DNA of 64,000 nt from an uncultured delta proteobacterium (GCA_963753975.1 CAVWEH010000004.1:256001-320000); one strand, 5' to 3'; shown: positions 9,441 through 23,570, numbered from the stretch's first letter. Numbers and translations are program-made. The notes: a model not told the origin generated them from the letters alone.

Positions 9441-9582
9441 TTATTTTGATTATTCTGCAATTAGTCTAGAAAAAATAGAACCGTCACCTATTAATTTCCT
9501 TGTCTGTTATCTGTTTCGCCTACTAAGTTTCAGTTTTACGTGGCTCATAAAATTGAAGATTACTGGTTGTAAGGTGCTAACA
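9441..9582. repeat. Dispersed repeat R1 copy 1 (imperfect palindrome plus attached gene 3' remnant)
   Basis: ttttgattattctgcaattagtctagaaaaaatagaaccgtcacc...tctgttatctgtttcgccta matches 11017-11163 and 14762-14822. Confidence 0.75.
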
Positions 9583-9739: not shown

Positions 9740-10840
9740 TTAATAAATAAACGTCTTAACTTCTTTCATAAACGAATATGTTGATATTTTTCCGTCTTTT
9801 GTGCGAATCTTTACGGTGTCACCCTTAAAACTGATTATTTGTCCTTCAAGGACATTCCCGTTCTGTAATTCTATTCCCTTTAGCCCCTCTATTACTTGAT
9901 AATGCTCTTCTGAATCCACTGGGCGATTTGTAACTGAGATATCCTTCTTGGGAACTTTTACTTTATCTTTGCGTAGTCGCGTACTGTTTTTGTCCTTCTT
10001 AAATTGATTTAAAAGGGCAATCACAGAATCAGCATCGCCCTCGTTATAAGTCTTCAGCAGTGAATCTCTCAAACGTCTTGGTTGTTTTTGTATCCACGCC
10101 ACAATTCTTCCTGAATCCCTTAAATTATCAAAGTCCGGATGAGCGCTTCTTATGGTATTAAGACGGTTTTCTTTAGCGATTCTTTCTAAATCTTCATTTG
10201 AGGTTGGACCAGTTGGCTGATCCGGTACCGGAGCTGGTGCAGGTGCCGGTTGAGCGACGGGTGCTTCGACTTCAGGAGTCGCTACCGATACCGGCTCTTT
10301 CATTTTGTTTAGGTTTGCAATTATGAACGGAATGCCGGCGAGTACGATAATAATTAATATATATATAATGACAGCTTTATAACTAGTTTTAGCTTTTGGC
10401 TTATTTTCTTCTATATGAGGTTTGCCAACTGCTCTTTGCTGTGGTGGTCGTCTCGAAGGAGTTTCTGCTTTTACCTTTTTTTCGTCTACGCGAGGTGTGC
10501 TAACTGTACTTTGCTGTGGTGATGGTCTCGAAAGAGTTTCTGCTTTTACCTTTTTTTCTTCCATGTGAAGTGTGCCAACTGCACTTTGCTGTGGTGACGG
10601 TCCCGAAAGGATTTCTGCTTTTACCTTTTTTTCTTCTATGGGAGGTGTGCTGACTACACTTTCCTGTGCTGATGGTCTCGGAGGTGGTTCCTCGGTCATC
10701 TTTGAAACTTCTCGCGGCGGAACTTTTTGTTCTGATATATCTTGTTTGGCAACTTTAACCGGGGGTAAGGTCATAGTGCAGTGCCAGCATTTTATTGCAT
10801 CATCTCGAAGCTCTCCATCACAGAATGGGCATATTTTCAT
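9740..10840 (-). CDS. Zinc-ribbon membrane-anchored hypothetical protein with four 25-aa repeats
   Basis: CPFC...CWHC N-terminus, tandem repeats, single TM helix. Confidence 0.8.
   Translation of the reverse strand: MKICPFCDGELRDDAIKCWHCTMTLPPVKVAKQDISEQKVPPREVSKMTEEPPPRPSAQESVVSTPPIEEKKVKAEILSGPSPQQSAVGTLHMEEKKVKAETLSRPSPQQSTVSTPRVDEKKVKAETPSRRPPQQRAVGKPHIEENKPKAKTSYKAVIIYILIIIVLAGIPFIIANLNKMKEPVSVATPEVEAPVAQPAPAPAPVPDQPTGPTSNEDLERIAKENRLNTIRSAHPDFDNLRDSGRIVAWIQKQPRRLRDSLLKTYNEGDADSVIALLNQFKKDKNSTRLRKDKVKVPKKDISVTNRPVDSEEHYQVIEGLKGIELQNGNVLEGQIISFKGDTVKIRTKDGKISTYSFMKEVKTFIY
10382..10681 (-). repeat. Intragenic tandem repeat, 4 x 75 bp
   Basis: Four diverged copies of a unit like SRPSPQQSTVSTPRVDEKKVKAETP. 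Confidence 0.85.
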
Positions 10841-11016: not shown

Positions 11017-11163
11017 ATGAGATGGTTTTGATTATTCTGTAACAAGTCTAGAAAAAATAGAACCATCCCCAATTAATTTCTCTATCTGTTATCTGTTTCG
11101 CCTAGAAGTCTACAACTTTACGACATGAATAAAAATGAGGATTCCTGGTTGAAAGCTGTTAAC
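11017..11163. repeat. Dispersed repeat R1 copy 2
   Basis: aatgagatggttttgattattctgtaacaagtctagaaaaaatagaaccatcccc... Confidence 0.75.
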
Positions 11164-11247: not shown

Positions 11248-11631
11248 TTACCAGCGCGCTTTTTCCAAGATTTCTGAATATCGTTGAAATTCTTCATCCG
11301 TTAAGTAGACGGAGTCCCATCCAAACGGTGGCAGTTGTATTTTACTACCAAGCTTGAGCTTGCTGTAATAGTTCCTGTAATAGTTCCTCGTAGTCTTGAA
11401 TGAAGTAAACTTCTTACAGTCTCTGGAAGCGATCCCATTGGAGATGTTATCTTGAGCTTCTTTTGGGAGAAACGGAATAATGTCGACATCAACCTGAGCG
11501 ACCTGGCACTGCTTCGTGAGGAATTCGACGTCCTGTTTTGTCAGTTTTGTTGGCTCTCCGGCATATACAGTGGACAGTATCACGGTTACCAGCATAAAGG
11601 ATAATAACGCTGCAAAACTCATCTTTTTCAT
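11248..11631 (-). CDS. Hypothetical secreted protein
   Basis: GGAGG RBS, signal peptide ending VYA. Confidence 0.75.
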   Translation of the reverse strand: MKKMSFAALLSFMLVTVILSTVYAGEPTKLTKQDVEFLTKQCQVAQVDVDIIPFLPKEAQDNISNGIASRDCKKFTSFKTTRNYYRNYYSKLKLGSKIQLPPFGWDSVYLTDEEFQRYSEILEKARW

Positions 11632-12672: not shown

Positions 12673-12718
12673 TTGTCTTGAGTATTGAGTGATGAATTGC
12701 CCTCCCCTGCTCCACATT

Positions 12719-12900
12719 AATGAGACCCAAATTTTAGAAGCGGAGCATGCTGAAATTTGTTGGACGAATTAATGAAACTCAAATGTTACAAACACAGTGC
12801 AGTAACATTTGTTAGTTGAATTATCCCGCCGCAGGCGGAGGAGATCGCAGATATCCGTGGTATCCCAGGAGCATAGTACCCTTAATAACCTGAAGGTCAC
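12719..12900. repeat. Hairpin repeat cluster (two B modules, one A half-module, taacctgaaggtcac)
   Basis: aatgagacccaaatttt...aaatttg and aatgaaactcaaatgttac...gtaacatttg. Confidence 0.75.
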
Positions 12901-13018: not shown

Positions 13019-13955
13019 TCAGTGCGGTTTTCGGCCGTCTTTTTTCATATTCAGCATTTCCTGCATAAGCTCGTCGATGTTCAGCCCCGGGGTATGACCG
13101 TATTCCTGAAGAAGAGCGGCATCGAACATTTCTTCCAGTTTCCGGAGTTGTTCCAGGGCGGTTTCATTCTGGCTGAAGGACTTATCCATCATCTCGACCA
13201 GGTTGTCCCCGGATTTTTTGAGATCGCTTAAATCGATATTCAGCGGCGTATGGGCGAACACCTTTTTCAAAAGATCGTAGCATGCTTTTGCGTTAAAATT
13301 CTGAATATACGGCGGGACTCCTGGCCGTGATGCCGGCCGCCTCGATACCCTCCCTGCCGGCCTGATTCAAAAGCATTGTGGAAAAGCTGCACGGCCCCGC
13401 GTAATTCAGAAACGGAAACGATTTGAATTCACTCTTCAACTCCGGACGGCTCAGCACGGCAAAGACCCGCGTTTCCCGGGTATGGGGCACCTGGTCGTAA
13501 ACGCCGCCCAGAGAATAAATTCTTGGAACCCGGTAGCGTTTGGCAATGCTCAGAATGGCTGACGCGTATTCCGGCCATTTCAGATTCGGTTCGGAACCTG
13601 TAAAAAGAATCAGGTCGTTCCCGGCGCCGCTCTTCCAGAAAAAGAATTCACTGGCGGGTTCGGCAAGCGACCTGATCAGGCCTTCTTCGATGACCGCATG
13701 GGGTCTCATGGTTTGCGCCGGATCAAAGCCCGGGACCTGCCAGATATGAAAACGCTGGGAATCGATGTGGGCGAACTTACGGGCATTAAGTTTGCGGCGC
13801 AGAAAGTCAATGCATCCGGTCGCAACCTCGCCCGCATTCAACCAGCCGCCTAAGCCGATCAGAATGTATGGATTTACAAGGTCGGGCGTATCCTGAAGAA
13901 TGAGACTGTCGTTCATAAGCGCTGCTATTATTGTTTGCCCGCTCTTTGCAGTCAA
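13019..13955 (-). pseudogene. PAC2 (proteasome assembly chaperone) family protein, frameshifted near 13318
   Basis: GLGGWLNAGEVAT, GSEPNLKW, SLGG...VPHTR; removing one base gives ...PPYIQNFNAKACYDLLKKVF, joining ORF 13019-13270. Confidence 0.8.
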
Positions 13956-13998
13956 GTATTATTTGTGGTACATATATATGGAAAGGTCATGGAGGAAA

Positions 13999-14682
13999 AT
14001 GCGTATGAAGATCACTGCTATTATCGGCAGTCCAAGAGGAACAAAAGGTGCTACTGGCAGGCTTATGGAAATCGTGATCGAGGGGGCCAAAAAACAGGGA
14101 GCCTCGACGGAAATTTTTGTCATCAAAGGAGGGGAAGTAAAGCCGTGCAGGGCCTGCGATATCTGTCACAGGGATGGCTTATGCCCGCAGAAGGATTCTT
14201 TTAGAGAGATAAAGGAAAGTATCAATAAGGCCGACGGTCTTATTCTGGCGAGTCCCAACTATATATTTCATGTCAGCGCTCAATTGAAAGCCTTCTTTGA
14301 CCGCTGCGCCAGTGCGCTTCATCTGCAGGAGTTTGAGGGAAAGTATGGCGCGGCAGTGGTCACGTCCGGCGGTGGCGATGAAGCGCCTGTAGCGGACTAC
14401 ATGCAGCATTTTCTCGCCACTGCAGGAGCCGTGCCTGTTGGCGCCGTCTGGGCGACGATGGGGCAGATACAGAATTATAATTTCCCGCAGGATGTAAGAG
14501 AAAAGGCTTTTGCCCTGGGCGAGAGGCTTGTTCATGCATGGAAGGCCAAGGAAAAGAATCCCACCTACGCGGAGGTTACACGGGCGTTCAATGAGCGCAT
14601 GCGTTCTCTGATGCTCTGGCGCAAAGAGGAATGGCCATATGAATACGAATACTGGAAGACGCACCGGGGATTGAAGGCTTGA
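13999..14682 (+). CDS. Flavodoxin-fold iron-sulfur flavoprotein (NADPH-dependent FMN reductase family)
   Basis: GSPRG, CRACDIC...CPQKD, LASPNY; GGAGG RBS before ATG 13999. Confidence 0.9.
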   Translation: MRMKITAIIGSPRGTKGATGRLMEIVIEGAKKQGASTEIFVIKGGEVKPCRACDICHRDGLCPQKDSFREIKESINKADGLILASPNYIFHVSAQLKAFFDRCASALHLQEFEGKYGAAVVTSGGGDEAPVADYMQHFLATAGAVPVGAVWATMGQIQNYNFPQDVREKAFALGERLVHAWKAKEKNPTYAEVTRAFNERMRSLMLWRKEEWPYEYEYWKTHRGLKA

Positions 14683-14761: not shown

Positions 14762-14822
14762 AAATGAGATGGTTTTGATTATTCTGTAACTAGCCTAGAA
14801 AAAATAAAACCGTCCCTAATAT
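14762..14822. repeat. Dispersed repeat R1 copy 3, abutting the herA-like stop codon
   Basis: aaatgagatggttttgattattctgtaactagcctagaaaaaataaaaccgtccc. Confidence 0.75.
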
Positions 14823-14824
14823 TC

Positions 14825-16669
14825 TTACTTAAAGTTTGCAATATCACCATATACTTCCATAAATAAAGGTGAACCTGTAAAGGACAAAGGAGAAACCGGG
14901 CCAAAAAACATAAATGGGAATTTATTATTGCTGGCCGGGTCTATAAAAGATCGATACAGACTAATAGCAGATCCATTATTTATTAAATCACTAATTCTTC
15001 TTAAAGCTGGTCCAGAAGTCAATCCATAACCAAAACCGAAGATTCTCACCTGCTCCCAAATCTCTCTATCTAAAGATTCAATGGTTTGAGTTATAAACAT
15101 ATACCCGATACCATATTTCCTGGTTGTTCTTACGGAATCAATTATTTCTGTGGTTAGTTGGGCAATTTGGGAATCGGATGATTCTCTCGATATGAACCTG
15201 TGCGCCTCATCCATAACAATAAGACAATTTACCTTCTTGCCTTGCGCATAGAAATCTTCTCCTTTTTCTTTAATTTTGGATTCAATAATTTTGACAAACA
15301 TTGCCTGAAGATTCTCGCTTATTTCTCTTCCACCCTTTTCGCTCAAATCCAAAATGACAAAATTACCCTTCTTGTCCTCATCTGTTACGAGCCTGATAAT
15401 TGAATCTATGGACTCTTTTTTTTGGCCACTAGCTTTTCTATCTGCAAATAAGACCACCACCGGTTTCCAATACTTAACGTAAATTTCTTTCAGTTGAGTT
15501 TCGCTAGAAAGCAAAGACGTGAGATTATCAATAAGCTGATCTTTCCTCGCATTCTGAGTGTAAATCAAATTAATATATTTATTATACTCAATGTCTCTCC
15601 TCCCTCTTGCATTTTCTATTTCTCTTGTTTCTGTAAATTTTTCTAAAACGTCTTTCATGGCCTTGTAACTAAATTCATCGTCCCACATTTTCTTCAAGCT
15701 GAAACCACCCTTGCTAACTTCAGCGCGATTTTGTATGTAAATTGATACTGCTTCCGCAGCGTTATTTTCTCTATCACTCAAAATACTAAAACTCTTTTTA
15801 ATAAATTCACTTTTTTGAAGCAGAGAGCCAAATAAATCGAAAGCATCGGCAGGCAAAAACAAGTCCTCCAGAACTTTGTACTTATTATATTTCATCCCTA
15901 TTTTCTCTATCTCATCCTTGAGTTTTTTGTTTTTGGGAACAACTAGTTCGCTATCAATATAGAACTGTCCCTTGGGATCTAAGACGAGAATATTCATATT
16001 GTTTTTATTTTTTGCATATCCTAATAACATATAAACTGCTGTTACAGATTTGCCAGAACCAGTTTTTCCAAAGACCCCAATATGGTAAGCATCGCCCGCG
16101 CCAAACTCCTTATTTTTTTCGTCCGTTGCATCAAAGTGTTTAAACCAAAAGGGTAAATCAACGTCCGTACCATAAACACGTCCGATATATGTTATATGCA
16201 CTTCATTAGTTTTCATAAGGGCAGTCATAACTTCGTTATTCATTTTTTTCACTTTTTCTCCGGTGGAAGGCGAAGTTCCGAGAATATATCCTTTTGGTTC
16301 AGCCTGTCCTAAATCATAACAAGCTTGGACACTAATAGTAGCTATTCGATTGTCCGCAGCACCGCTTAAATGCGGCAATGTCCCATGTCGTTTTATAACG
16401 CCTTTAAAAGAAGGGTCTTCATGCCATCTATTTTCAGTTCTAATCGAAATTATTTGACCCATCACCAGAACATTGCGGGCATCTTCCTCGATAGCAACAT
16501 ACACCATTTGACCTAATGCCCTATCAGCCTTACTTTCTTCGGTTATATCAATAGTAATATCAATAGTCGTGCTGGGGGAACTAGTTATACCGATAACAGC
16601 TTTTTGCTGCTGAGCTTTGATGACTTCTAGAATATGATCACAAACTGACTTCTCTTGAGTACCACTCAT
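14825..16669 (-). CDS. herA: HerA/FtsK-family ATPase (DUF87) with N-terminal HAS-barrel-like region
   Basis: Walker A HIGVFGKTGSGKS, LVLDPKGQF, Walker B IVMDEAHRF, Arg finger RKYGIGYMFITQ. Confidence 0.88.
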   Translation of the reverse strand: MSGTQEKSVCDHILEVIKAQQQKAVIGITSSPSTTIDITIDITEESKADRALGQMVYVAIEEDARNVLVMGQIISIRTENRWHEDPSFKGVIKRHGTLPHLSGAADNRIATISVQACYDLGQAEPKGYILGTSPSTGEKVKKMNNEVMTALMKTNEVHITYIGRVYGTDVDLPFWFKHFDATDEKNKEFGAGDAYHIGVFGKTGSGKSVTAVYMLLGYAKNKNNMNILVLDPKGQFYIDSELVVPKNKKLKDEIEKIGMKYNKYKVLEDLFLPADAFDLFGSLLQKSEFIKKSFSILSDRENNAAEAVSIYIQNRAEVSKGGFSLKKMWDDEFSYKAMKDVLEKFTETREIENARGRRDIEYNKYINLIYTQNARKDQLIDNLTSLLSSETQLKEIYVKYWKPVVVLFADRKASGQKKESIDSIIRLVTDEDKKGNFVILDLSEKGGREISENLQAMFVKIIESKIKEKGEDFYAQGKKVNCLIVMDEAHRFISRESSDSQIAQLTTEIIDSVRTTRKYGIGYMFITQTIESLDREIWEQVRIFGFGYGLTSGPALRRISDLINNGSAISLYRSFIDPASNNKFPFMFFGPVSPLSFTGSPLFMEVYGDIANFK

Positions 16670-16687
16670 AATTCCCCCTATCTACAA

Positions 16688-17884
16688 CTATTTGGTTCGA
16701 TAGTTAAAAAGTAAATTAAACTTACCCTTATCAATTTTTAAGTCTGGTGATAATCGTACAGCTTCCTGTATAGCAAACATGCCAGTAGAAATGCCCTTAG
16801 CCATTATATCAACCAAGTACTGAGGATAAGGTTCCCTGATTTGAGGAAAAACAATTTGCTTCTTAATACTTAAAAGATATTTTTCTAGAATGGCTTTATC
16901 TAAAGCTGCTGCTTCCTTTAATTCAATACGATATGCTATACCATCAGCATAAGGCTTATAATAAGTAAAATATAGTTTTGATTTCTTGCCTTTTGTTGTT
17001 AATGGTTCAATGGCTTGCTTAAGAGCCTCATTCAGTTTGATCTTTTCGTCTATCTCTAAATTACAATTTATATGCAAATCGTTCCAAACCTTTTTTCTTT
17101 CTTCCGAACTTTGGCCGACCGAGAAAGGCGTCAAATATTCGTCCTCTTGAAGTTTTAAAGAAAAGAAAGTCCTATCATCTATTGTTATATTATGCTTCTT
17201 TAAGTAAGCATCGATGATATCCCTTGAGGAACTATATTTTACCAAAGCGATAATGTTTGGATCTCCGTTTAAAACCGAGTTAATTATGTCGGGAATATCA
17301 GGGATAATCTTTTTATAAGTTTCCCTTAAGAAATCACGCAAAGCATCAGCATACTCCTTGTCAGCCGTATTCTCATCTTTTGCTGACAGCATACTATTAA
17401 TCTTAAGGATAGGAGTAAAATGAGTACCATCCATGATTCTTATATCGTGCTTTGACGAGGCTAAGACACTTAGCTCCATCAAAAACATTACCCCTTGGGC
17501 GAGTCTAGCATTAGCTTCATTGTGTGATAAAACCGTTTGCCATTGATAATATTGATTTTTGTCTTTCCCCCAATCCTTAGATTCGTCTACCGTCAATCCT
17601 TCTACGCCAACCGCAACGGCTAAGAGTAAATCCGTACCTGTCATTCGCTCTAAAATAAAACTACCATCTACAGCGACAAGCGAAGTCGAAAAATCTGTAC
17701 CTGTTAATTTAATAATCTTGCCTGAGGTCTTAAGCTCAGCCATTCCGTTTTCAAGTGGCTCATCTTGAATATTAAACATCTTATTCATTTTATCCACCGT
17801 TAACGGCACATGCTCAAGAATCTTGGCCAGCAAGTCTTCAGGCAAATGTGCATAATTTCGGTTTCCCTCTTCAAAAGACGTCAT
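16688..17884 (-). CDS. nurA: NurA-family nuclease
   Basis: AVDGS, FLMEL, IMDGT and C-terminal PYPQYLVD motifs; adjacent to HerA. Confidence 0.82.
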   Translation of the reverse strand: MTSFEEGNRNYAHLPEDLLAKILEHVPLTVDKMNKMFNIQDEPLENGMAELKTSGKIIKLTGTDFSTSLVAVDGSFILERMTGTDLLLAVAVGVEGLTVDESKDWGKDKNQYYQWQTVLSHNEANARLAQGVMFLMELSVLASSKHDIRIMDGTHFTPILKINSMLSAKDENTADKEYADALRDFLRETYKKIIPDIPDIINSVLNGDPNIIALVKYSSSRDIIDAYLKKHNITIDDRTFFSLKLQEDEYLTPFSVGQSSEERKKVWNDLHINCNLEIDEKIKLNEALKQAIEPLTTKGKKSKLYFTYYKPYADGIAYRIELKEAAALDKAILEKYLLSIKKQIVFPQIREPYPQYLVDIMAKGISTGMFAIQEAVRLSPDLKIDKGKFNLLFNYRTK

Positions 17885-17885
17885 A

Positions 17886-19046
17886 TTATTTTACCGCTCG
17901 CAATTTTTTAGGTTTGTCAATTTTTGAACTAACATCCTCAAAAAAACATAAAGCATTAAAATTTTTATATGTTAAATCCTTCTCACTTTTTGGTATTGCC
18001 CATCTTTGTTTCCAATAGGCTGTTAAGTCATCAATAGTATGATGATACCATTTAGGTCTTGCATTCTTTTTGATTACGTCAGATAAGTTTTTCACAAAAG
18101 GAAAGAGATACACAGCTCTCCTTATACCATGTGTTGAGCCATTTTCGAAGCCTAACAGATTTAAAGCTTGTGATATCAACCGCAACTTCCTAGAAGGACC
18201 ACTACCGTAACCTCTTCGTACATCATATCCTTTTGAATCTAAGAACATTACTAGTTTATCAAATATATCATTTGAAATATGAAACGAGCCGCTTCCATGT
18301 GAATAGCCAATAAATTTTGCAACATATTCTGTGTTATATTTCAGGCGTGTATAAACACTGCTTTTCCCATATGCACCTGTTGTTGTTATGAATAGTAGTC
18401 TGGGTGGCAAATCTCTTTTTTGCAGAACTGTTTGGACATCAGCATATTTTTGTGCATATTTTCGTCTTATTAAATCAGCGCCTACAAGGTAGGCTACTAA
18501 TTTACCGCCCAATATACTATTATATGGCGGTACGGCACCTAGGCGCTGTGCGCTTAAAGACTGATTAACCCAGTAATCTCGAGTATCCGCAGGAATACCT
18601 AAATGTTTGTCTCTGACACTCCAGCTTAAAATTGGACTTTGCAGTCCAATTAATCCAATAATTGATTTGTGATGTTGATCCCATACTATATAACGCATTT
18701 GCCTTCCATAAGCACGTTCATATGGCAAGCTCCACCAAACGAGATTCCACCACCGGAACAAAACTTCCCATTCTGTATCTGGCAATACCTCTATAAGACG
18801 TGGTTTAATTTTTCGTACGTCTATATTGTTACCATCAATCAAGTATTTTTTAGCTATTTTAGTACTTCTTGAAATGAAATCTTTTCGTTTCTCAATACGT
18901 TCTTCTTTTGCCAAATCATGGACCGAGCGCTTTGTATCGTGATCCATAACAGCTAACGAAAATTGATTTTTTTTAACTTCATATCCTTGTTTTTTAAGTA
19001 TCTTTCTAATCTCTTTTTTTAATTTTGCTTGATCAATAGTTTTCAT
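17886..19046 (-). CDS. DUF4338 / Druantia DruA-like protein
   Basis: WSLPYERAYGRQMRYIVWD...IGLIGL, RD, LGAVPPYNSILGGKLVA, ITTTGAYGKSSVYTRL, GSGSFH. Confidence 0.82.
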   Translation of the reverse strand: MKTIDQAKLKKEIRKILKKQGYEVKKNQFSLAVMDHDTKRSVHDLAKEERIEKRKDFISRSTKIAKKYLIDGNNIDVRKIKPRLIEVLPDTEWEVLFRWWNLVWWSLPYERAYGRQMRYIVWDQHHKSIIGLIGLQSPILSWSVRDKHLGIPADTRDYWVNQSLSAQRLGAVPPYNSILGGKLVAYLVGADLIRRKYAQKYADVQTVLQKRDLPPRLLFITTTGAYGKSSVYTRLKYNTEYVAKFIGYSHGSGSFHISNDIFDKLVMFLDSKGYDVRRGYGSGPSRKLRLISQALNLLGFENGSTHGIRRAVYLFPFVKNLSDVIKKNARPKWYHHTIDDLTAYWKQRWAIPKSEKDLTYKNFNALCFFEDVSSKIDKPKKLRAVK

Positions 19047-19237
19047 GATTGAAGTGATTTAAGACAATCGTATTATTTACTTATGTAGGATACTAAGGAC
19101 AGCGCCCAATTACTAAATTGGAGCTTTGCGAATATTACGCTTTCTTAAAAAAAGCGCAAGAAAAAACATGTAGTTGAATAAGACAGAGGCGAGGGGCACG
19201 TAGCACGGGACAAGCGCAAATACCCGCGGAAGAAAAT

Positions 19238-19975
19238 TCAGCTGAAGTAAACACCGCCGTCGACATTAATCGTCTGACCGGTCATGTAACCGTTCCCGAC
19301 AAGCATGACGGCGATAGCGGCCACTTCCTCCACCGTGCCCAGCCTGCCTACCGGAATTAGGCTGCCCAGGGAGCGTGCGGACTCGTTAATCATATCCGTG
19401 ATGATCAGCGCCGGAGCGATAGCATTTACGGTGATGCCTTCCTTAATCAGCAATGCGGCGAAGGAATGTGTTAAGCCCAGCATTCCCGCTTTGGAAGCGG
19501 CATAATGCGGCCCAACAATGCCGCCCGTATGTGCCGCCGCCGAAGAAATGTTGATAATTCTGCCCCACTTCTGCGCGCGCATCTGCGGGAGCGCCGCCTG
19601 CGTTACCAGAAAGCAGGATTTAAGATTCACGGCAATGGTCTTATCCCAGAGCGCCTCGTCAATTTCATTCAGAGGGGTGATCGGGGCTATCCCCGCGTTA
19701 TTGACCAGAATGGATATCGCCCCAAGTTGATCTTCCACGGTTTTGATCATTGCGGCAACAGCCTGCGAGTTGCTGACATCGGCTTGCACGGCAAGAGCCC
19801 GCCGGCCTTGTTCCTCAATTATCCGGCAGACCGCCCGGGCTTCTTTTTCCCGCGATACGTAATTAATTGCTATATCGGTTCCCGCTTTGGCGAGTCCTAT
19901 GGCGATAGCTCTGCCGATACCGCGACTTCCGCCGGTTACCAGAGCGATACGTCCTTTTACTTCATCAATCGGCAT
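19238..19975 (-). CDS. SDR-family oxidoreductase (FabG-like)
   Basis: TGGSRGIG, NNAG, YAASK. Confidence 0.93.
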   Translation of the reverse strand: MPIDEVKGRIALVTGGSRGIGRAIAIGLAKAGTDIAINYVSREKEARAVCRIIEEQGRRALAVQADVSNSQAVAAMIKTVEDQLGAISILVNNAGIAPITPLNEIDEALWDKTIAVNLKSCFLVTQAALPQMRAQKWGRIINISSAAAHTGGIVGPHYAASKAGMLGLTHSFAALLIKEGITVNAIAPALIITDMINESARSLGSLIPVGRLGTVEEVAAIAVMLVGNGYMTGQTINVDGGVYFS

Positions 19976-20835: not shown

Positions 20836-21384
20836 CACGGGCCCAGCCAAAGCCCTCCGATAGCGCAGGATCGTTCCCAATCCCGATCTATCGGGATTGG
20901 ATAATTCGACTTACAAATTTCACTACACTGTGCTTGTGAAATTTGAGTCTCATTACAGCTAGTAAATTCCGATGCACCTATAGTGACCTTTAGGTTATTT
21001 GCTTTCGTAATTGGAGTTTCACTATACTACAACTTCCAATAAGTAATGCAAGGAAAATCACGGGTATGAACCACAAAATAAGGTTTTGCCAACCATATTT
21101 CTAAAAGGTGTCATTAATCCCCATACGCTACGCTTCGGGGATAGTTCGGCTAACAAATTTCACTACACTGTGCTTGTGAAATTTGAGTCTCATTACAACT
21201 TTCAGTGCGCTACGCTTGCTTTTATTAAGGTGCTCATTATCCCCATCCACTGCGTTTCGGGGATAGTTCGGCTAACAACTTTCAGTGCGCTATGCTTCTG
21301 AAAGTTGAGCCTCACTACAACTAGCCAATTCCGATTCACCTATAGTGACCTTTAGGTTATCCGTTTTCGTAATTGGAGTTTCAC
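20836..21384. repeat. Large cluster of modular hairpin repeats
   Basis: Two identical caaatttcactacactgtgcttgtgaaatttgagtctcatta units, two atcccc...ggggatagttcggctaacaa units, two aattccgat...gtgacctttaggttat...aattggagtttcac units. Confidence 0.85.
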
Positions 21385-22768: not shown

Positions 22769-23570
22769 CTAATCGGTTTTCTTCTTAACCTCCGCCACGA
22801 TTTTCGGCAAAATAGTGCCGGTCTTTCCCTGGATCAGATAATCGGATATGCCCTCTTCTGTCAGCGGAGTGCGATCAGCATTGATTTCAACGATAATTGT
22901 TTTTTGTTTAGATTGATACTGTTTGGCCATCCTGGGCAGCATGGCAAAAGGATGAACTACCGCCGACGTCCCGCAAATCAGCATCAGATCACATTTTCCC
23001 ACCTCTGCCTGGCTTTCCTGGGCGACGTCTGCGGGAATGGCCTCATTAAAATGGACGACATCCGACTTCAGAACGCCATTGCATTTTCGGCATAAAGGCG
23101 GCAAGCGATCTTCCGCCAATAACCGATCCAGCTCGAATTCCGTCGGGATCAAACCGGGAATCGCATTCAAAACATCTGAGCAATGAAATATTTCCGTGAT
23201 AATCCAGAACTCTCTTGCTGCCCGCTTTCTGGTGCAGGTTATCAATATTCTGGGTGACTACACATTTCAGAAGTGCCATCTTCTCCAATTCGGCCAGGGC
23301 AAAATGCCCGGGATTAGGGAGGGCATTAATCAAATCTCCCATCCATGATGTGCCGGTCATTCGCTCTATCCAGTATTCTTTGGGGTTTTGTTGAAACTTG
23401 AAATAACTCTGATAGGCCTTTCTTTCGGCAGCGGGATTTTTCGTCCAGATCCCGTTTGGTCCCCGAAAATCAGGGATTCCCGATTCGGTGGACATGCCTG
23501 CTCCGGTCAACCCGACGGCATGTTTGCTTTTGATTAACAGCTCGGCTGCTTTGGAAATTAATTCTTCCAT
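22769..23570 (-). pseudogene. Sir2/CobB NAD-dependent deacylase, frameshifted near 23146
   Basis: GAGMSTESGIPDFRG, TQNIDNLH, HG, CxxC; continues as PTEFEL...CRKC...GTSAVVHP after removing one base. Confidence 0.85.

Follow-up and report, generated by a model that had tools for sequence, protein, structure and literature searches.

Positions 14,825 to 19,046 of the window (by which we mean the whole 64,000-nucleotide stretch of DNA analyzed here, CAVWEH010000004.1:256001-320000, from the genome GCA_963753975.1 of an uncultured delta proteobacterium) contain a cassette of three genes, druA, nurA and herA, which is considered here as a candidate defence system. All three genes are read from the minus strand. 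The first one, druA (17886..19046), encodes a DruA/DUF4338 protein of 386 amino acids (aa), as assigned from the list of open reading frames (ORFs) and from Pfam and PADLOC profiles. It is followed by nurA (16688..17884), coding for a 398-aa protein of a divergent NurA-type nuclease subfamily with an RNase H/PIWI-like fold (ORF list, Pfam and fold), and by herA (14825..16669), coding for a 614-aa HerA-type ATPase (ORF list, DUF87 and Walker motifs). The genes are intact and the island holds no others. An initial annotation of this stretch, made by a model from the sequence alone, had described them as co-oriented and separated by 1 and 18 bp. The ORF list agrees with this, and direct reading of the junctions gave TAA, one nucleotide and ATG between druA and nurA, and TAG, an 18-nucleotide spacer containing a GGGGGA Shine-Dalgarno-like run, and ATG between nurA and herA.

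The same annotation placed the genes between unrelated redox genes, in a DNA region more AT-rich than its surroundings, and both statements were confirmed. An NADPH-dependent FMN reductase gene (13900-14682, plus strand) lies on the left flank and a short-chain dehydrogenase (SDR) gene (19238-19975, minus strand) on the right one. GC content, calculated over 600-nucleotide segments, is 0.33-0.40 in the island versus 0.48-0.54 in the flanks; for the individual ORFs it is 0.35, 0.36 and 0.37 in the cassette versus 0.50 in the FMN reductase gene and 0.55 in the SDR gene. The right-hand edge of the island is a 191-nucleotide spacer (19047..19237, minus strand) between the SDR gene and druA, presumed to be the putative promoter region of the operon. 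When the sequence was scanned for promoter and terminator consensus sites, their number was below that of shuffled sequence. On the left, the cargo is bounded by a conserved ~55-bp repeat (14767..14822, plus strand), which abuts the 3′ end of herA and ends 2 nucleotides short of its stop codon. A repeat had indeed been reported at this end of the cassette; the palindrome attributed to it is merely a short one, of the CTAGNCTAG type, within the element. A reading of the cassette as a transposon was dropped, as a search of the flanks found neither terminal inverted repeats nor target duplications around the three genes. Nor does the window contain a tyrosine recombinase gene: none of the five PF00589 matches of the genome falls there.

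The family labels given to the three proteins stood up to profile searches, all matches being above the Pfam cut-offs. DruA matches PF14236 with an E value of 1.8e-62 and 211.6 bits (cut-off 27), in an alignment that spans positions 7-295 of the 297-position profile, and the PADLOC DruA model PDLC00002 with an E value of 3.1e-86; a search of PDB with its sequence returned nothing meaningful. In the AlphaFold model (predicted local distance difference test score, pLDDT, 88.6; predicted template modelling score, pTM, 0.86), a GNAT-fold core at about residues 77-335, with a conserved insert, is flanked by a small N-terminal domain and by C-terminal helices. The best 50 rows obtained with VIA-align are all GNAT-fold enzymes by title (Z 8.0-9.9, residues ~77-335). 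The top match is Mom from phage Mu (8bv8; Z 9.9, root-mean-square deviation 3.7 Å, 170 residues aligned), and GNAT toxins and protein N-acetyltransferases appear among the near-tied matches (for example 7byy, Z 8.7). Foldseek results were weaker (E 0.04 upward) and are mostly GNAT-fold proteins by title, Mom and RNA cytidine acetyltransferases included, together with malonyl-CoA decarboxylase chains and pre-ribosome chains. Phage Mu Mom modifies adenine in DNA.

Alignment of 45 DruA sequences revealed 24 invariant columns, as well as the conserved insert at about residues 190-300. A P-P-Y-N-x-x-L-G-G-K stretch with invariant residues G170, P174, Y175 and K182 follows the fourth core strand, at what would be the position where GNAT enzymes bind the pyrophosphate of coenzyme A (CoA). 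The isoelectric point (pI) of DruA is 9.97 in the window copy and ranges from 8.96 to 10.57 in 45 of 45 orthologues, unlike those of NurA and HerA, which are acidic to neutral. By its predicted structure, DruA is a strongly basic GNAT-fold protein. DUF4338 has also been called a GNAT domain by Krishnan, Burroughs and Aravind, whose proposal is that N-terminal add-ons of DndF are co-effectors acting on self molecules, proteins being the target of the GNAT domain (PMC10853773).

With respect to NurA, the match to Pfam PF09376 is weak (26.8 bits, cut-off 21), and profiles of this NurA subfamily run against PDB sequences gave nothing below E 0.16. The assignment is confirmed by the fold, which matches NurA structures: the ten best Foldseek rows for the AlphaFold model (pLDDT 82.3) are all archaeal NurA proteins (E 7.7e-11 to 1.1e-7, probability 1.00), and chain G of TdpAB (E 7.2e-4) and chain G of the Deinococcus radiodurans HerA-NurA complex (E 1.9e-3) appear in lower rows. 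Residues D73 (in AVDG), E137, D152 (in MDG), H155 and D359/K363 (in YL-D-MAK) are invariant in 40 sequences. A 2026 review defines the NurA motifs as two "DG" motifs and a C-terminal motif (PMC13748450), and the invariant acidic residues found here would lie at the active site. HerA matches DUF87 (E 6.8e-11, 43.1 bits, cut-off 23.2) and contains a Walker A motif (GKTGSGKS, residues 201-208) and a Walker B motif (DEAH, residues 487-490). Positions G201, G204, S205, G206, K207, D487 and E488 are invariant in 37 sequences, and residues 1-190 are also conserved across the alignment. The HerA profile found only HerA-type chains in PDB (8wiv, 3.3e-9; 9c1m, 6.4e-9; 8wet, which is TdpA, 9e-9; Sulfolobus 4d2i, 5.3e-8). 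No membrane-span-like stretch was found in the HerA sequence. Judging from sequence and models, both NurA and HerA look active.

We searched for relatives of the NurA protein by two routes. A word-index search, in which 8000 candidates were scored, gave 499 proteins at E ≤ 0.001; the best 120 of these 499 matches are 64-82% identical to the window copy and carry names such as Parcubacteria, Omnitrophus, Zixibacteria, Chitinophagaceae, Pyrinomonadaceae and Chloroflexota. When 1.84 billion cluster representatives were searched with a profile, 600 NurA relatives were obtained at E ≤ 0.001, 174 of them at E ≤ 1e-30. On sequence grounds, this NurA subfamily is small and coherent. Scanning one genome per species, 77 loci were found through NurA alone, and their gene content was then determined by tblastn with the three proteins of the window. 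The initial annotation had proposed that the three genes form one module, and their synteny does hold elsewhere, even where identity has dropped to about 30%: the complete triple occurs in 70 of the 77 loci, six loci are cut by contig ends, and one lacks herA, which in that locus (L071) has shrunk to a 32-residue remnant. Cassette length is 4.0-4.2 kb. There is no fourth gene common to all loci, and no antitoxin-like partner is conserved in the cassette.

The linkage persists through rearrangement of the gene order, which points to a shared function of the triple: druA is the first gene in 56 loci, 10 cyanobacterial loci have it behind herA, and in four it lies behind herA on the opposite strand. 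Pairwise divergences of the three proteins correlate as well (Pearson r 0.89-0.96, Mantel p 0.001, in 50 cassettes whose genes are all full-length). The three genes form a conserved unit, of which druA is the third obligatory partner. Cassettes were found in Patescibacteria, Nitrospirota, Cyanobacteriota, Actinomycetota, Chloroflexota, Pseudomonadota and other phyla. In the NurA tree, the window copy belongs to a well-supported five-row clade with an alphaproteobacterium, a Wolfebacteria metagenome-assembled genome and Omnitrophus; phyla are scrambled, yet Cyanobacteria (seven rows) and Nitrospirota (seven rows) each form a clade of their own. Six of the 70 complete loci show frameshifts or internal deletions (herA in five, druA in three, nurA in one), some of which may be assembly errors. 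The decay was examined for a gene that is dangerous to lose, and the broken cassettes were too few for any pattern; within these few cases, no locus has druA alone broken with nurA and herA intact.

The horizontal acquisition of the cassette suggested by the initial annotation is supported by three kinds of data. The NurA protein was found in none of the 40 relatives that were searched (14 congeneric genomes, 10 further members of the family and 16 further members of the order), GC content is low, and a sister genome has other cargo at the same site. In that genome (G010, locus L086) the same flanking genes, with an FMN reductase 98% and a dehydrogenase 93% identical to those of the window, enclose about 10.8 kb of different genes, and similarity picks up again at window position 19223. 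The genes enclosed include a type VII retron (L086 8110-10123; RT_VII-A2, E 2.8e-101, and DUF3800_VII, E 3.6e-37). One and the same chromosomal site is thus occupied by a retron, a recognized defence system, in one genome and by the cassette in the other. The G010 retron adjoins an 813-aa protein with HSDR_N and SEC-C domains and a 213-aa protein to which no family was given.

We then compared the cassette with systems already described. Druantia type I reportedly consists of DruABCDE, as named by Doron et al. in 2018. It shares DruA with the cassette, as can be seen from the full-length PF14236 match and the PADLOC DruA match of the window protein. Moreover, when aligned over 85% of its length, the window DruA shows 33% identity to the protein annotated as DruA in a canonical druA-B-C-D-E array of the Pseudomonas putida plasmid pKF715A. 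In that array, druA is followed by genes for proteins of 558, 625 and 260 aa and then for a helicase of 1841 aa, whereas in the window it is followed by nurA and herA. The effector thus differs, being a DEAD/DEAH helicase of about 1840 aa in Druantia type I and a NurA nuclease with a HerA ring ATPase in the cassette. None of the three cassette proteins matches the PADLOC DruE model, and the island contains no DUF1998-type helicase. The absence of DruE from the window, already noted in the initial annotation, was verified, as the genome has a sole DUF1998/MZB match, in an 818-aa frame of a different contig. DruB, DruC and DruD are likewise absent from the three-gene island, the part of the window scanned for them. 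Druantia type IV of PADLOC (DruE, DruF and DruL) is different from this triple.

The closest parallel in design is TdpABC, which is said to have been described by An et al. in 2025 (Nat Chem Biol 21:1160) as a phosphorothioate modification-restriction system. Its three-gene logic is the same, with a DNA-acting gene, a HerA-like hexamer (TdpA) and a NurA-like nuclease (TdpB). The first gene differs: that of TdpABC encodes the phosphorothioation enzyme TdpC, whereas the corresponding gene of the cassette encodes the GNAT-fold DruA, whose DNA modification is hypothetical. Nor is the sequence of TdpA closer to the cassette HerA than those of other HerA proteins (profile E 9e-9). TdpABC is likewise described as one modification gene, tdpC, together with a HerA-like and NurA-like restriction pair (PMC12914056). 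With the archaeal and Deinococcus NurA-HerA end-resection complex, the cassette shares the NurA fold, the acidic residues, the Walker motifs and the adjacent nurA-herA pair; unlike that complex, the cassette pair is tied to druA, horizontally spread and located in variable islands, and Mre11/Rad50-like partners are found in only two of the 77 cassette loci. The anti-phage systems SIR2-HerA and DUF4297-HerA likewise combine a HerA-class ATPase and an effector enzyme in a compact mobile operon. Unlike them, the cassette has NurA as effector and a third obligatory gene. Matches of its HerA to the PADLOC HerA and mad8 models are weak (best 7.3e-14), and none of these models fits well.

A further likeness is to the tdtA operon of the Thermus thermophilus element ICEth1, the description of which lists Tth111II (a type IIG enzyme), a NurA-like protein, TdtA and a methylase (PMC5365140). 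According to the same source, loss of the NurA-like or of the type IIG gene cuts transjugation by orders of magnitude, a tdtA mutant gives no detectable transjugants, and TdtA is without a secretion signal (PMC5365140). In ICEth1, as in the cassette, a NurA-like gene lies directly upstream of a gene for a HerA/FtsK-class ATPase in a low-GC mobile island, and a type IIG gene also occurs in one sub-clade of the cassettes (see below). Differences are that for ICEth1 DNA donation has been shown, that this element has an integrase and att sites, and that its published operon description reports no DruA; the window, on its side, has no type IIG gene, methylase or integrase.

The initial annotation did not recognize the triple as a described system, and our searches agree with this. 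In PADLOC-DB v2.0.0, NurA matches none of the families and the three proteins do not fit any one listed system. We found no literature joining "Druantia" and "NurA", in a search of the main texts of openly accessible papers, so that a prior listing, for example in a supplementary table of a defence-discovery paper, is possible; the papers found that mention DUF4338 do not describe the triple, and none of them names NurA. The cassette extends the known HerA-driven nuclease systems and DruA-bearing systems and is not a new category. What is new here is the intact copy, the retron at the sister site, the type IIG sub-clade, and, as described next, the count of full-length DruA partners and the insertion sequence (IS)-linked DUF4338 forms.

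To view DruA outside the cassette, we used a sample of 401 genomes evenly drawn from the phylum of the window. PF14236 matches occur in 66 of them. Most are short (profile positions ~5-228), often multi-copy, and linked to insertion sequences. Among these forms (L093-L116; L122 2489-4666, minus strand; L123 3812-4666) are multi-copy, IS-linked DUF4338 proteins of about 300 aa with a helix-turn-helix-like leader and a 725-aa DDE_5 transposase, present in three copies in one genome, the N-terminal part of which is the DUF4338 core. The short or IS-linked forms have neither the insert nor the C-terminal part of the cassette DruA. Full-length DruA is encoded in six of the 401 genomes: beside NurA-HerA in five of them, the genome of the window included, and beside DruB-E in none. 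NurA of these full-length-DruA loci is only 25-27% identical to that of the window. The sixth full-length DruA is encoded by the terminal gene of an operon (L121 7854-13241) that also codes for an ORC/CDC6-like kinase protein of 845 aa and a CARF6-like protein of 352 aa. The kinase protein matches the PADLOC CARF6 STK_AAA model (1.6e-51) and there is no NurA-HerA at this locus, which represents another partnership of DruA. Taking into account that five of the six full-length carriers in the phylum sample pair with NurA-HerA, a family named after Druantia may mainly serve the DruA-NurA-HerA cassette in uncultured bacteria. The full-length DruA matches on plasmids that were opened belong to classical Druantia arrays or lie beside a DruE-sized helicase. 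A DruA tree of 36 rows groups the four Druantia-linked DruAs in a single branch (Shimodaira-Hasegawa-like approximate likelihood ratio test, SH-aLRT, 93) among several deep NurA-HerA-linked branches; as the tree is unrooted and sampling uneven, no direction of partnership change can be claimed.

The genomic company of the cassette was studied in a sample of 30 cassettes with 143 flanking ORFs, at most two on the upstream and three on the downstream side of a cassette; the figures are raw counts made without a background control and hence do not measure enrichment. In 13 of the 30, a restriction-modification, toxin-antitoxin or PADLOC-listed gene is among the flanking ORFs. These neighbours include EcoRV with a Dam-class methylase, a type I R subunit, type III and type IIG enzymes, a ThsB-like TIR protein, HEC-01, PDC-S11, PDC-S21, SocA, a Gp49/HTH pair, a Ppl-like ATPase with Fic, and a Schlafen-type protein. 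Eight of the 30 have a serine recombinase or transposase nearby. More distant cassettes lie beside a type III restriction-modification system and HmaC, or beside GmrSD. A gene for a type IIG restriction-methylase of about 1050 aa is located directly 3′ of herA in nine of the 77 loci (L059, L060, L061, L065, L068, L071, L073, L076 and L078), which form an Actinomycetota/Chloroflexota-type sub-clade, and in a single viral contig (L125). The type IIG gene is thus conserved as an add-on to the triple; its products are 41-57% identical and match the PADLOC REase_MTase_IIG model with E values as low as 6.5e-200. In one distant cassette, a 1043-aa TmtA-like protein is encoded between druA and nurA (L120 9044-12175; PADLOC TmtA 3.7e-98; Pfam SACS and NOV_C), and an N6/N4 methylase gene lies 3′ of herA.

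Our interpretation is that the window contains an intact, horizontally acquired copy of a widespread cassette that most likely represents an anti-phage or anti-plasmid DNA-destruction system, with DruA as its presumed DNA-directed control. We infer the defence function from fold, conserved residues, genomic company and analogy. By comparison with solved homologues, six HerA subunits would form an ATP-driven ring pumping double-stranded DNA into a NurA dimer, which would cut both strands of the DNA fed to it; fold and residues suggest that NurA-HerA may be an ATP-driven effector against incoming DNA. The authors of the Thermococcus kodakarensis structures discuss such a duplex-feeding NurA-HerA as a possible means of foreign-DNA destruction (PMC12977600). 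DruA would supply control or target discrimination for the nuclease machine and would itself work on DNA, as a DNA-binding protein or else as an enzyme that labels the DNA of its own cell with an acyl-type group; marking would resemble the activity of its fold neighbour Mom and the service that TdpC renders to TdpAB. We prefer, if only thinly, DruA acting on DNA to DruA acetylating proteins, because of its Mom-like fold, its high pI, the transposase fusions and the fact that druA was never found broken alone. The more specific proposal that DruA is a Mom-like GNAT enzyme attaching an acyl-type group to bases in the DNA of its own cell, with NurA-HerA destroying the unmarked DNA, is a speculative one and in our opinion rather unlikely to be correct as it stands.

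Several observations weigh against this interpretation as a whole or against its DNA-directed DruA. Every functional step is inferred. Ordinary protein and small-molecule acetyltransferases are within 1 Z unit of the Mom match, the P-P-Y-N-x-x-L-G-G-K stretch differs in its letters from the textbook acyl-CoA loop Q/R-x-x-G-x-G/A, and the authors who defined DUF4338 favoured a protein-directed co-effector role (PMC10853773). About half of the 30 sampled cassettes adjoin housekeeping or unassigned genes only. An identity of 64-82% across phyla is unusually high for a defence gene and could mean a selfish or transfer-related unit; furthermore, NurA is found in none of 72,556 plasmid records, and only one cassette locus, comprising the three genes and the type IIG gene, was found among 2.9 million viral contigs. 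The make-up of the type IIG sub-clade resembles the tdtA operon of Thermus ICEth1. As druA is retained in the cassettes to which a type IIG methylase is attached, DruA is not simply a methylase substitute. Finally, Mre11-like (Metallophos) and Rad50-like (SMC/AAA_23) genes lie directly 3′ of herA at two loci (L046 10541-14862 and L047 9834-14602). The resulting set, DruA-NurA-HerA-Mre11-Rad50, is the archaeal repair gene set plus DruA.

One alternative, likewise a defence system, has NurA-HerA attack invader DNA and assigns DruA the role of a co-effector toxin, which would acetylate a protein or charged tRNA and cause growth arrest when NurA-HerA is blocked (abortive infection). The description of DUF4338 as a GNAT domain and the proposal that DndF add-ons are co-effectors acting on proteins (PMC10853773) argue for such a role, as does the presence of GNAT toxins and protein N-acetyltransferases in the group of tied fold matches (for example 7byy, Z 8.7). 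We nevertheless regard it as unlikely. DruA is strongly basic in 45 of 45 orthologues and the DUF4338 core is fused to a transposase in IS elements, so that nucleic-acid binding fits DruA better; in addition, the best fold match is a DNA-modifying enzyme, and the antitoxin-like partner that one would look for is not conserved in the cassette.

A second alternative, and a serious one outside defence, is a DNA-transfer module similar to ICEth1, in which nuclease and HerA-type pump would cut the DNA of their own cell and export it ("transjugation"), or else act on mobile-element DNA, so that the cassette would promote rather than block gene transfer. The requirement of the ICEth1 operon (type IIG, NurA-like, TdtA and methylase) for transjugation, as described in PMC5365140, is consistent with it, and so are the type IIG gene directly 3′ of herA in nine of the 77 loci and one viral contig, the recombinase or transposase neighbours in eight of the 30 sampled loci, and the high identity across phyla. 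However, the window is devoid of integrase, terminal inverted repeats, type IIG gene and methylase, DruA does not figure in the ICEth1 operon description, the cassette stands alone among housekeeping genes in many genomes, and a retron occupies the same site in the sister genome. The HerA protein has no membrane-span-like stretch either, although TdtA too is described as being without a secretion signal (PMC5365140). Altogether, we consider a transfer function improbable.

End resection by NurA-HerA for recombination has been proposed for archaea and Deinococcus, and a housekeeping role of this kind in double-strand-break processing, with DruA as an accessory regulator, would agree with the fold and catalytic residues, with the Mre11/Rad50-like genes 3′ of herA in two distant loci and with the lack, correctly stated for the window in the initial annotation, of sbcC (no SbcC Walker-B match anywhere in the genome, which is 95.1% complete, so that an end-processing gap is conceivable), but it is made very improbable by the finding of the NurA gene in none of 40 relatives, 14 of them congeneric, the low-GC island in a site of exchangeable cargo, the scrambling of phyla on the NurA tree, the frequency of defence and mobile genes as neighbours, and the decay of the cassette (frameshifts or deletions in six of 70 complete loci, and herA lost in one further locus).

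If the cassette does defend, as we think probable, a widespread system would be added to the catalogue. No mechanism for DruA in Druantia is known to have been established since the system received its name in 2018, and in the literature surveyed mechanisms are described for Druantia type III only. In the cassette, DruA is joined to its simplest and best-understood partner, a NurA-HerA motor with solved structures and assays; as this partner is well understood, the contribution of DruA should be directly readable in a three-gene system. If DruA were to mark DNA, this would be a new kind of epigenetic self-label and would define a modification-restriction class whose mark is neither methyl nor phosphorothioate. 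The same chemistry would then explain the role of DruA in type I Druantia and in Dnd/Ssp-like and ORC-like modules.

With respect to the chromosomal site itself, the ~55-bp repeat does not occur outside this hotspot. Three copies are present in the genome, all of them within the window (9444-9485, 11020-11069 and 14767-14822), and five sister genomes (L086, L130, L131, L132 and L133) contain two to five copies each. Most copies follow a cargo gene or operon at a distance of 2-91 bp and are oriented alike with respect to it. The cargo between copies is low in GC and variable: besides the cassette and the type VII retron, it comprises AbiEii, OLD-like AAA_15/21 ATPases, Fic and metabolic genes. 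With the repeat sitting at the 3′ end of the cargo, the layout resembles a cassette array with an attC-like boundary element. An integron reading of the repeat was dropped, as the window contains no integrase and, by eye, no GTTRRRY/RYYYAAC pair is present in the aligned repeat. Two low-GC ORFs beside repeat copies (window 9740-10840, minus strand, 366 aa, and 11248-11631, minus strand, 127 aa) match nothing in Pfam or PADLOC and may belong to the cargo of this hotspot as well. Short dispersed repeats of other families are seen at window positions ~12718-12866 and 20850-21000, with dozens of copies in this genome and in the sister genomes. Beyond the right flank, the sequence at 22769-23570 (minus strand) is probably a frameshifted cobB-type deacetylase gene, or else a sequencing error.

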